From contig OX597838.1 in NCBI GenBank assembly GCA_951406725.2, positions 7,564,001 through 7,628,000 of the forward strand: DNA of 64,000 nt. Direction: 5' to 3'. Of this stretch, positions 8,121 to 14,667 are shown piece after piece (the first letter of the stretch is position 1; every line of letters starts with the position of its first letter). A program made the translations under genes and the position numbers. The notes beneath the pieces were generated by a model, which searched no databases, was not told the origin of the DNA, and saw nothing but the letters and a program-made list of their open reading frames with translations. The stretch comes from Octopus vulgaris (lineage: Eukaryota).

Positions 8121-8180
8121 TTACATGTGTAAACATAATATGGTTCCAATCACAAGGAATAATATGCTTCGTAAGCTGAC
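8121..8180 (-). CDS. Terminal coding exon of gene B: hydrophobic GPI-signal-like tail VSLRSILFLVIGTILCLHM*
   Basis: Acceptor ttctctttacAG, phase 0, stop TAA at 8123-8121 overlapped by AATAAA. Confidence 0.8.
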   Translation of the reverse strand, partial: VSLRSILFLVIGTILCLHM

Positions 8181-8436
8181 CTGTAAAGAGAACGGAAATC
8201 TGTTTATCCACACATCGATATTCATGAGATAGAGCATGTTTTTCAAAATAATTCTTTTTTTTTCTATACATGAGTTAAAATACAGAATTTTGCTAACAAA
8301 ATTCAGCCACGAAATATAATGATGAGAGTTTGATGTAAATTTTACGATACACTATGCTGTATCTGATTGAAAACGATTTATTAAAGTTCAATAGATTATT
8401 ATTTAAGCATAGTTAATACAGATGTACTGCAGATGA

Positions 8437-8740
8437 TGTTGCTGTTGCTGTTGAGCGAACGGTCAAACCCCGACACCGAGAGCATCGACAGATTGATGAA
8501 AACGCATCCAGGCTCAGCGATTGCGTAGGAAGTCGGGGACAAGAAACAGGAAGAAAGAGTGAGAGAAAGTTGGGGAGAAAGAGTACAACAGGGGTCGCCA
8601 CCCCACCCCCTGCCGGAGCCTCATGGAGCTTTGGGTGTTTTCGCTCAATAAACACACACAACGCCCGGTCTGGGAATCGAAACCGTGATCCTACGACCGC
8701 GAATCCGCTGCCCTTCTCACTGGGCCATTGCGCCTCCACT
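8437..8740 (-). mobile_element. tRNA-Arg-like SINE with an alternative 3' tail ending in (CAACAG)n
   Basis: Head and body match 506-700. Absent from the paralogous intron near 5340. Confidence 0.85.
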
Positions 8741-8877
8741 TGCATATGCTGTTGCCCTATCTGAATTGATATGGTTATATTTTCTTTGATAAGTCACTGT
8801 AGCTATGGGTTAAGAATTGCACCGGCCATATAACAATTCTAAGAAATTTTATATTATAATGAATACTTTGCATTAAA

Positions 8878-9095
8878 TAATGGTTTCAAATTTTGCCACA
8901 AGGGAAGCAATTTGGAGGAAGGGGACTAGTCGATTACACCGACCCCAGTACACAACTGGTACTTAATTTATCGACTCCGAAAAGATAAAATGCAAAGTCG
9001 ACCTCGGGGGAATTTGAACTCAGAACGTAGCGACGGGCGAAATAACACTAAGCTTTTTGTCCAGCGCACTAACGAATCTGCTAGCTCGCCGCCCG
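8878..9095 (-). mobile_element. SINE, gcctttcatcc family, ttgtggcaaaatttgaaacc tail variant
   Basis: Sequence match. Absent from the paralogous intron near 5500. Confidence 0.85.
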
Positions 9096-9483
9096 AAAAT
9101 ATATTAAATAATACAAGTACGATGATTACACTAAAGTTTCAAAAGTATATACATTAAGTATGATACATAGAAGGCTATTTTAGTCTAATAAACTTTCAAT
9201 CGCCCATAGCAGGCATTAATACTACCTTTGTTATCGTATATCATTGTAATACTGCGACCAATGCTCATTCTATTTGGACCAAATTCCAGTTCAATTTCAA
9301 TTCAATTGAATTATATCTGCTCTGACATTCTAATAGCGTACATGTATAGTTGAGGTGGTGAAGGGTTGCATTCACTGTGTCGTTGGTGCTAATTCAGTGG
9401 ATCGTTGCATTATTCAATTGCGTAAACTAATGTTGCAAGCGTAATAGTACTCAATACTGATATCTTAGAAATGGAGTACTTAC

Positions 9484-9510
9484 CTCGTTTCGGTTACTCT
9501 TGCTGAATCC
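9484..9510 (-). CDS. 27-nt microexon of gene B (GFSKSNRNE; candidate omega-site region)
   Basis: Acceptor ttgtttatttccAG, donor gag|GTAAGT, phase 0->0. Confidence 0.8.
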
Positions 9511-10019
9511 CTGGAAATAAACAATGAAGATATTGGGAATGATGAATTCCACTTCTATTGCATCTTAATAATTATTCATACATAAAATACAGAATCATCA
9601 ATTAATTTCGAACTTCATAATAGTAAACTTAATTTAAATGAAGGCAAGTTGCAAGCCATTACGCACTTATGTTGCATTGAAAATCTTCTTTAAGAAATGA
9701 AACCGGTTTGAAATTATGTACATTGAAGCAAGTTGTAAGCATAAAATTTGGAGAATTTATAAACGTATTTTGAAATTATTTGAATGTAAAACTAAACTTT
9801 GAAATAAATTCACTGACGTATCAGTTACAGGGTATTTTTGATGTATGTATATATGCATGTATGTATGCATGTAAGTATGCTTGCATGCATGTATGTATGT
9901 ATGTGTGCATCTATGTATGTATACATACATGCAGATTTCTATGTTTTGTTTTATGTATGACTTCTCACGCATATACTTGTATATCTAGATATGCTCATAT
10001 ATACTTAAATGACAAACTT

Positions 10020-10410
10020 CTTAAAAGTATCTTTTTACGTCATCTAGGGAATTGAAATTTTTACCATTAAGACTATTCTGCAGAGACTTGACTCAGTGGA
10101 AATCAGAAGGAGCAATATCTGGTGAATATGGAGGGTGGGAAAAACACATCCAAGCCGAGCTGCAGCAATGTTTGTCTGATTCCCAAAGCATCAAGTGCCG
10201 AAAATGAATTGTCTTATCTTCCATTTTAAAGGGTTACAGAATTAACACAGGTTATAGGAACATAAACGGTCTTCCATGAAAAGATAGCTTAAACTGTGCA
10301 CTAAATGGAGGTGTTGTCAAATCCGATTTTATGGACTAAACCATGTTCGAAAATAAGTTGAAAGGTAAGCTACTATAAATCGGCACGAACTTTCCGGGCA
10401 AGCCAATACA
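10020..10410 (-). mobile_element. mariner remnant
   Basis: Contains ggtgaatatggagggtggg (HPPYSP-like on the minus strand) and a mariner-like end. Confidence 0.6.
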
Positions 10411-10482
10411 AGTATATCTACCATGTAAATTCGTTACACTGCGTGTCTATTAATAACTCTAATATTTATAAAAGCCTCTTAC

Positions 10483-12607: not shown

Positions 12608-12722
12608 GTGATGCATGTGCCTGGTGTACCTTTATCAGACGGGTAGTCATGATGGGTATATTGGGCTTCGTATATTTTACCCCAGTGTCACTTTGATGGC
12701 ATGAACTGCTCTCTCACTCAAT
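12608..12722 (+). mobile_element. LINE 3' end (probably R4/Dong-like) inserted in (TAA)n
   Basis: ccccagtgtcactttgatggcatg...ctctctcactcaataataat. The same sequence occurs at 31938-32000 and 46935-46960, each next to (TAA)n. Confidence 0.6.
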
Positions 12723-12822
12723 AATAATAATAATAATAATAAGAAGAAGAAGAAGAAGAAGAAGAAGAAGAAGAAGAAGAAGAAGAATCCCATCCAAAAA
12801 TACCTTAGGAATGAGATCCCAG

Positions 12823-12866
12823 ACACCTGATGAAGGCTGGAGGGTACATCAGCCGAAACGTTGTGT
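12823..12866 (+). ncRNA. Minimal type I hammerhead ribozyme motif
   Basis: acac-CTGATGA-a-ggctg(gagggtacat)cagcc-GAAA-c-GTT-gtgt. Stem I acac/gtgt, stem II ggctg/cagcc, palindromic stem III ACGT. Confidence 0.65.
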
Positions 12867-12924
12867 TAACAACAAACAAGATGAGGGCAAATAACAGTCA
12901 AATGTAAATAATGTAAATAATTTG

Positions 12925-13300
12925 AATAAAGGCTTCCTTCTTGCAGCTCTGCCATAGTATCCAAGTTTGTGGAGATATCTGTCAGCTATTCTGGGATTGA
13001 TATCAATTTGTAGTAGTATGTCAGAGGCCTTGCAATAAGGATTATCCTCTGCACCCCACTTAACAAAAGAACGGGTCCTTTCAGAGGGTTCTGGTCGATC
13101 TGGCCAATTGGTTTGGCCTCCTTCCGCTCTCCGGCGAATTGTACAATCAGCCTATTAACTGTAGAAAGCGGCAATTTACGCTGACTAAACCTACATTCAG
13201 AATGACCCATAATATGGCCTTTTAATATGTCATGATTAAACAGTCACATAGAGAACCTGAAATATAAAAATGTCCATTAATATAACATATAAGCATTTTA
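12925..13300 (-). mobile_element. Tc1-like remnant (5' region)
   Basis: ggcttccttcttgcagctctgccatag resembles the Tc1 HTH region. Degenerate. Confidence 0.4.
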
Positions 13301-13604
13301 AAATTAAAATAAATATTAAACAATGTTTAAATGAGTGTCTATATATATATATATATATATATATATATATATAGACACACACACATATATATATATATAT
13401 ATATATATATATATATATATATATATATATATATATATATATATATATATATATATATATATATGTACTATTCACTTTGTTTATTTCCTCATTTTTATTT
13501 CTGTTGAAGAGCAAAGGTGCGAAACGTAAAATACTTTCTCACTTAATATATATATATATATATATATATATATATATATATATATATATATATATATATA
13601 CATA

Positions 13605-13828
13605 TTGAGTTGGTGCATAATTATTGCGCCTTTTTTTTCAACAAAATTTATTCAGAAAAAGCAATAACAAAACAAAAAATAACATCTTTAAATGATTATT
13701 CCGGAGCATATTCACCATCTACATTGCTTGGCAGACGGTCAGACCATAATTTAAAGATTTTCTTAAGTATAGTTATTGTTTGTGTCGGGGGGGGGGGGAA
13801 CCGGCGCAATAATTATGCACCAACCCAA
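13605..13828. mobile_element. mariner-derived MITE
   Basis: TIRs ttgagttggtgcataattattgcgcc / ggcgcaataattatgcaccaacccaa, flanked by TA. Confidence 0.9.
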
Positions 13829-14582
13829 TACATACATATACATATATATATATATATATATAATGAATACACATAATAAAATATTTAAATTTCATGCCTT
13901 CCACTGTCAGTTGTATAGCATGTTCGATTTGCATATGTCCAAGCCGAACTCCAGCGTGTATTTCTTTCCTAAGCAATTCCAGGTACTAATCCTTGGTAAG
14001 TTTTTTTTTTCTTTTTTTTTTCTAGTTTCAGCTCAGAGCTGCGGCCATGCTGATGCACCCATCAATGTTATTGAATTTCTTTGGTGATATTGTGAAGAAG
14101 ATACATCAGATGTTCATTCCTTAAGTGTGAACGAAAAAATTTCACATTCCTCACGATAGACCAGAGATCGTCTTCAAAATATTTCAATCTTGGAATAATA
14201 TCGATACATGACGGAAGTATAAAGATTTGAATAACACCTGCGTTTAACTCCATTTCTTAGGTTACCTATATATATATATATATATATATATATATATTTA
14301 TATTCATATTCATATTTATATATTTATATTTATATCCATATTTATATATATATATATGTGTGTTTGTGTATAATTCATAATTATGCAATAAGCAAAAAGC
14401 AAGTGACAGGGTGTAGTAATTTCCTCTTCAGGAAAAAAGGAAGAAGACTTTGATATTTCGAGGCCACGCTCTTCTTCAGATTTGAATGAGGAGAAAAACA
14501 AATGATTTATATATAACTGTCAATAAAAATCATGTATGAAAACTAAATTAGATATAATTTGAGTCAGTAGAAATATAATTAC

Positions 14583-14667
14583 ATGCAATAATTGTGAAGA
14601 ATGTTGGTGTAATGACCGTGGCACAGGCTACGTCCTATGCCTCGGCATTTCTTCGACACCATATAGA
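14583..14667 (-). CDS. Internal exon of gene B: xYMVSKKCRGIGRSLCHGHYTNILHNYCI
   Basis: Acceptor tttttttatatttgtAG, donor cat|GTaatt, 85 nt, phase 1->2. Paralogous in layout to exon 120-30. Confidence 0.8.

Follow-up and report, generated by a model that had tools for sequence, protein, structure and literature searches.

The described protein to which the locus treated here compares most closely is neuritin (CPG15; NRN1, PF15056), a vertebrate nerve protein whose expression is neural and regulated by activity and in which six cysteines are spaced 9-24-8-7-27; secreted, cysteine-braced helical domains of invertebrates are also represented by the families DUF1397 (27 kDa haemolymph protein-like) and DUF19 (PF01579). 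Published work describes neuritin as a protein of 142 residues with a signal peptide and a glycosylphosphatidylinositol (GPI) anchor (PMC12715718), comprising a 27-residue leader, a mature chain of residues 28-115 and a remainder that is removed at GPI addition (PMC10123642). The latter paper also places cysteine-free runs at residues 47-61 and 84-100, the second extending at least 17 residues after Cys83, and calls the protein highly conserved among vertebrates (PMC10123642). Direct binding of the AMPA receptor subunit GluA1 (PMC6740334) and shedding (PMC13070893) are likewise reported. The gene considered here belongs to Octopus vulgaris and lies on the minus strand of a 64,000-nucleotide stretch of contig OX597838.1 (assembly GCA_951406725.2, positions 7,564,001 to 7,628,000 of the forward strand), hereafter the window, whose DNA is animal-like, AT-rich and laden with microsatellites and repeats. 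On the observed structure and conservation of this gene, with processing predicted by rule and partner and kinship suggested by analogy, we would put at roughly 60% the reading that its precursor matures into a GPI-anchored, disulfide-braced helical surface protein, acting as a neuritin-like contact ligand or accessory subunit.

The coding exons, read on the minus strand from the start codon to the stop, and a candidate polyadenylation signal are the following.

23375-23339, minus strand: coding exon 1, ATG at 23375, 37 coding nucleotides, phase 1 out; signal peptide residues 1-12
19197-19111, minus strand: coding exon 2, 87 nucleotides, phase 1 to 1; end of the signal peptide and a cysteine-free N-terminal extension
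14667-14583, minus strand: coding exon 3, 85 nucleotides, phase 1 to 2; Cys49, Cys57 and Cys69
10567-10483, minus strand: coding exon 4, 85 nucleotides, phase 2 to 0; Cys78, Cys85 and Cys97
9510-9484, minus strand: coding exon 5, 27 nucleotides, phase 0 to 0, strong splice sites; likely omega residue Ser101 and the first part of the polar spacer
8180-8121, minus strand: coding exon 6, 57 nucleotides and a TAA stop; end of the spacer and the hydrophobic C-terminal run, continuing as the 3' untranslated region
7676-7681, minus strand: candidate polyadenylation signal, the first AATAAA past the stop, with a second AATAAA at 7535

Spliced together, the six exons give a precursor of 126 residues. 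A first-pass annotation, made from the letters, had joined exons 3 to 6; these were located again with AG and GT ends and the phases described, and the joined peptide was reproduced. As an account of the gene it was incomplete, however, since these are the last four of six exons and the two that encode the signal peptide (23375-23339 and 19197-19111) had been missed. Likewise, the label of a microexon gene strictly suits the 27-nucleotide exon and not the other five, which have 37-87 coding nucleotides.

The choice of these exons rests on a counterpart in Octopus bimaculoides, XP_014779404.1 (LOC106875678; UniProt A0A0L8GNL3), a protein of 123 residues annotated as uncharacterised. Past fixed thresholds the window holds 35 minus-strand candidate exon frames, five of them with at least three cysteines, and four of those five are versions of the two 85-nucleotide exons; several chains are phase-compatible, and outside evidence is therefore needed to choose among them. 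The six best tblastn matches of XP_014779404.1 in the window are the six exons, collinear and all on the minus strand, five of them at an expectation value (E) below 1e-3 (best 3e-9), while none of 200 shuffled versions of the protein gives a match at E<1e-3. Exon 1 matches residues 1-12 of the counterpart, and its ATG stands in a strong context (A at -3, G at +4) with an upstream in-frame stop and a donor after 23339; exon 2 is matched at E 2e-6 and is three residues longer than its counterpart, and exon 4 is identical at 20 of 28 residues (71%). End to end, 89 of 126 residues are identical (71%), with a single three-residue gap after the signal peptide and none at the four downstream junctions. 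Judged by sequence, the six-exon gene is real, its splicing being predicted, and it would be the orthologue or a close paralogue of LOC106875678. The gene had been called hidden, which does not hold, given that this orthologue already stands in RefSeq and UniProt, if as uncharacterised. On a rough matrix built for this analysis, acceptors score 4.3-9.1 and the donors of both 85-nucleotide exons are weak (0.2 and 0.7), so that these two donors rest on the orthologue and not on site strength.

A second protein of the same O. bimaculoides gene bears on exon 3. RefSeq isoform X2 of LOC106875678, of 85 residues, equals isoform X1 without exactly the equivalent of exon 3 (14667-14583) and then continues in a shifted frame; both junctions of exon 3 are therefore fixed independently, with identical positions in the O. 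bimaculoides gene. RefSeq isoform models are normally backed by transcript evidence. The same skip, modelled in the window, yields 88 residues and a stop at the same place as in X2. In both species (88 and 85 residues) the skipped product has the signal peptide, loses the cysteine domain and stops in the last exon, so that the transcript would escape nonsense-mediated decay. Dual coding of the X2 frame was considered and rejected: 13% of recodings leave this frame open by chance, and at 31/47 it is less conserved than the main frame (36/47). The orthologue's bases for exons 4-6 could be fixed from the two isoform frames at 137 of 143 places. Across these exons 22 of 143 bases differ (15%), ten of them at third positions, and over 47 codons, a small sample, the nonsynonymous and synonymous rates (dN and dS) are 0.13 and 0.40, with dN/dS about 0.33. 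Read from this comparison, exons 4-6 are under purifying selection, of a loose kind, and the protein is fast-evolving.

Other ways of assembling the gene were tried. A chain that includes 18406-18381 ends at 60 residues with only 31 identities to the orthologue, and the addition, together with that stretch, of a weak 43-nucleotide candidate exon (17366-17324) creates a 23-residue insertion absent from the orthologue. A second open frame through exons 1 and 2 was dropped on the orthologue's match to the signal-peptide frame. The 26-nucleotide stretch at 18381-18406 (minus strand, intron 2) has splice sites stronger than those of several true exons and is absent from both O. bimaculoides isoforms; its inclusion shifts the frame to a 60-residue product with two cysteines 11 apart and then a dibasic pair, and it may be a poison exon or of no significance. 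Exons 3 and 4 resemble each other in that each has 85 nucleotides and three cysteines and ends Cys-x11-Cys, with a histidine three residues before the last cysteine. An internal duplication was rejected as their source, 643 of 2000 and 387 of 2000 shuffles scoring as high, which is not significant.

The precursor divides into a leader, an extension, a cysteine domain and a tail. The first 19 residues form a hydrophobic stretch that closes with Thr-Glu-Gly, where the orthologue has Thr-Glu-Ala; by the established -3/-1 rule for signal cleavage the signal peptide is likely cut after residue 19. About 29 cysteine-free residues follow, and then a 49-residue domain with cysteines at 49, 57, 69, 78, 85 and 97, that is, with spacing 7-11-8-6-11. 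Of these 49 residues 37 are identical to the orthologue, and all six cysteines are invariant between the two proteins at the same spacing. The earlier count of seven histidines between Cys1 and Cys6 and the spacing itself were recovered from the joined exons, and conservation of the cysteine frame in a related species, a check that had been proposed, was borne out in O. bimaculoides. Beyond the domain the two octopus proteins also share a cysteine in the tail, the signal peptide, the tail as a whole and, going by isoform X2, the boundaries of exon 3; the window protein differs in having three more residues after the signal peptide and two more histidines.

Signals for GPI attachment combine small residues at omega and omega+2, a polar spacer of about 7 residues and a terminal hydrophobic run, with no cytosolic tail. 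In both species the tail has this pattern by rule, with omega at Ser101 (Asn98 in the orthologue), Ser at omega+2, a polar spacer and 25 residues after omega, and the hydrophobic run reaches the chain end without a charged tail (Kyte-Doolittle 11-residue maximum 3.03). The GPI-type tail proposed from the O. vulgaris letters is thus found conserved, and the protein is likely to be GPI-anchored on the cell surface, as predicted from these residues. A helical fold for the domain, also proposed at first pass, is supported by the hydrophobic moment, which for segments of the domain exceeds at 100 degrees its value at 170 degrees in eight of eight cases, and by two AlphaFold models that are helical across the domain but unreliable (predicted local distance difference test, pLDDT, 42 and 45).

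Sequence searches reach little beyond the octopus pair. A phmmer search with the 30-residue exon-4 frame against 1.84 billion representatives gave three matches, one of them true, namely XP_014779404.1; the other two, a repeat-laden P-type ATPase-like protein and a protease/tetratricopeptide repeat-like protein, were discarded as chance. In a search of 5.8 billion proteins the true relatives were two of seven matches and two of 2246 candidates, in each case the two isoforms of LOC106875678. Neither the 1.84 billion representatives, searched with the exon-4 piece, nor the 5.8 billion proteins contained a sequence relative from outside Octopus. A word-index search with the exon-4 frame among proteins of 75-2000 residues returned no candidate though the orthologue was present, which marks the limit of its sensitivity. 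The exon pieces matched no Pfam family, a PDB sequence search gave one match (E 0.32, disregarded), and none of 312 pattern matches from a metagenome scan was confirmed. A literature search found no paper that mentions any of the four accessions; these are also absent from the supplements of three octopus omics papers (PMC6635378, PMC10142993 and PMC10138644), and short motifs are absent from those of the latter two.

Comparison by features in the ESM Atlas, with bars of 0.9 for the feature score and 170 for the number of shared features, gives a wider picture. Among the matches listed, the best 4 of 30, the top two are unnamed clusters, mostly of Mollusca, at 0.92 (183 of 256 features shared) and 0.90 (169 of 256), one of 129 residues with 51 members and one of 115 residues with 66; the higher-scoring of the two may be the cluster to which the protein itself belongs. 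Their likeness to the octopus protein lies in similar length and high feature scores, the comparison being by features and without alignment. The view that the protein is lineage-specific thus stands by sequence search, which returns Octopus proteins only, and probably does not stand at the level of the family. After the mollusc clusters, the nearest named cluster among these four is neuritin (PF15056) at 0.85, with 154 of 256 features, and a DUF1397 (PF07165) cluster, of 304 residues, appears at 0.77; the ten best family-bearing matches share one family or clan. DUF1397 has no Pfam match to the protein. DUF19, which had been offered as a loose likeness, has none either and is absent from these best 4 of 30, the nearest named feature cluster being neuritin instead. 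Nothing at 0.9 came from an Atlas search with the 30-residue piece, and all Atlas structure matches had template modelling (TM) scores below 0.4. With a low-confidence model, Foldseek returned no match at E up to 0.001, and a wide fold search (VIA) returned generic helical bundles (best Z 5.9, root-mean-square deviation 3.0, 66 residues aligned).

Set beside neuritin, the octopus protein shows a clear likeness of layout. Both are precursors of 120-145 residues with a signal peptide and, by rule, a GPI-type tail; the mature chain would have about 82 residues against 88 for neuritin, each has six cysteines with the anchor site just past the last of them (here four residues after), and Cys3 and Cys4 are separated by 8 residues in both. 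Several observations weigh against this kinship or against the surface protein proposed. The full orthologue matches no Pfam family at E up to 10, NRN1 included, in a search whose HMMER filters remove the majority of those with E over about 0.1. The Cys2-Cys3 and Cys5-Cys6 intervals, both of 11 residues, are shorter than those of neuritin (24 and 27, in line with the long cysteine-free runs reported for it), and about 29 cysteine-free residues precede Cys1, unlike in neuritin. The neuritin cluster falls short of both Atlas marks (0.85 against 0.9, and 154 against 170), and 71% identity between two octopus-type genomes sits poorly with the high conservation described for neuritin among vertebrates. 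The hydrophobic tail, at about 14 residues, is rather short, and the low confidence of the two structural models counts on the same side. The protein, then, resembles a compact neuritin in layout but is not recognised by the neuritin hidden Markov model and does not have its cysteine spacing; on account of these two results it is not filed as neuritin. On the analogy of layout and features, it may be related to vertebrate neuritin at a distance, as a shrunken form.

The neuritin-like surface protein would be made as follows. The 126-residue precursor would enter the endoplasmic reticulum and lose its signal peptide after residue 19; three disulfides would form there, and transfer to GPI at Ser101 would remove 25 residues and leave a mature protein of 82 residues, displayed on the outer cell surface by its anchor. 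As there is no catalytic or cytosolic part, the protein would act through binding to a partner in the membrane, and it may serve a membrane receptor or channel as a small contact ligand or as an accessory subunit, in the manner of neuritin with GluA1. By the same analogy it might be shed as a soluble form. Common ancestry with neuritin, if any, would be distant and would run through a wider molluscan family.

Other explanations, not all mutually exclusive, have to be weighed against this one. The strongest, though unlikely, is that the protein is GPI-anchored and unrelated to neuritin, a lineage-restricted, small, cysteine-braced helical recognition protein of skin, gamete or immune surfaces. 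The confinement of its sequence relatives to Octopus, the 15% base divergence of exons 4-6 and the result with Pfam all agree with this, and a recognition role would account for the fast change; the feature neighbours, however, are consistently mollusc clusters and then neuritin, and six cysteines with an anchor site four residues past the last are the neuritin layout. It is quite improbable that the histidines of the helical bundle bind zinc or copper at a common site, making a surface metal-binding or metal-bridged protein, as the first-pass annotation had suggested in part. Seven histidines in 49 residues are many, the five between Cys1 and Cys6 of the orthologue are all at shared places, and two sit three residues before Cys3 and Cys6. 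Nevertheless, in a comparison of two sequences, five of seven histidines are kept (71%) against 37 of 49 domain residues (76%), the other two being Gly and Asp in the orthologue; metal binding is unsupported because this conservation is no higher than the domain background. An even number of cysteines behind a signal peptide fits disulfides, and the models are too poor to show any clustering of histidines.

As slight a chance attaches to the reading in which the C-terminal run is no GPI signal, and either holds the protein in the membrane as a short anchor or is removed by trimming, which would leave a type I membrane or a secreted protein. The run is indeed short and has a histidine near its end, a basic residue stands at omega+1 and an arginine precedes the run; against that, some 14 hydrophobic residues are few for a membrane span, nothing lies beyond them, and small residues occupy omega and omega+2 in both species. 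A chance assembly of exons or a dead gene copy, to which the weak donors of exons 2-4 on the rough matrix might point, is scarcely credible against six collinear matches, an open frame with intact start, stop and splice sites, a dN/dS near 0.33 and the failure of all 200 shuffles to match.

Some further features of the window lie in or beside the gene. Just upstream of exon 2, 19256-19802 holds three tandem copies of a 183-nucleotide dispersed repeat, which recurs with others across the window; these are probably short interspersed elements. A 40-nucleotide unit is present in 2.3 copies at 7765-7857, in the probable 3' untranslated region. On the plus strand, 46059-46134 is an ATG-started frame of 25 codons with a hydrophobic run and a strong donor at its end (score 7.8); it has no Pfam match and probably encodes the signal peptide of a different gene for a secreted protein, directed away from the six-exon gene. 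A possible further exon, open in one frame only, lies at 55151-55206.

In light of these comparisons, the gene model of a protein that ordinary sequence search barely finds has been completed, and a protein whose counterpart was already known in O. bimaculoides, as uncharacterised, emerges from its sequence as a likely GPI-anchored, six-cysteine surface protein of octopus. Without the link to neuritin it would join the many small surface proteins that are restricted to one lineage. A bolder reading, improbable as it stands, would make it a miniaturised, fast-evolving octopus neuritin: the molluscan branch of a family studied to date in vertebrates alone, with both long loops cut to 11 residues. 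GPI-anchored in the nervous system of cephalopods, it would modulate glutamate receptors or the stability of synapses, and exon-3 skipping would tune it by giving a soluble, cysteine-free product. A literature search found no paper combining 'cephalopod' and 'neuritin'. More broadly, if kinship to neuritin, shared with the mollusc clusters, and neural expression were both true, neuritin-type regulation of synapses would date to the protostome-deuterostome split, and it could then be examined in the learning circuits of cephalopods.

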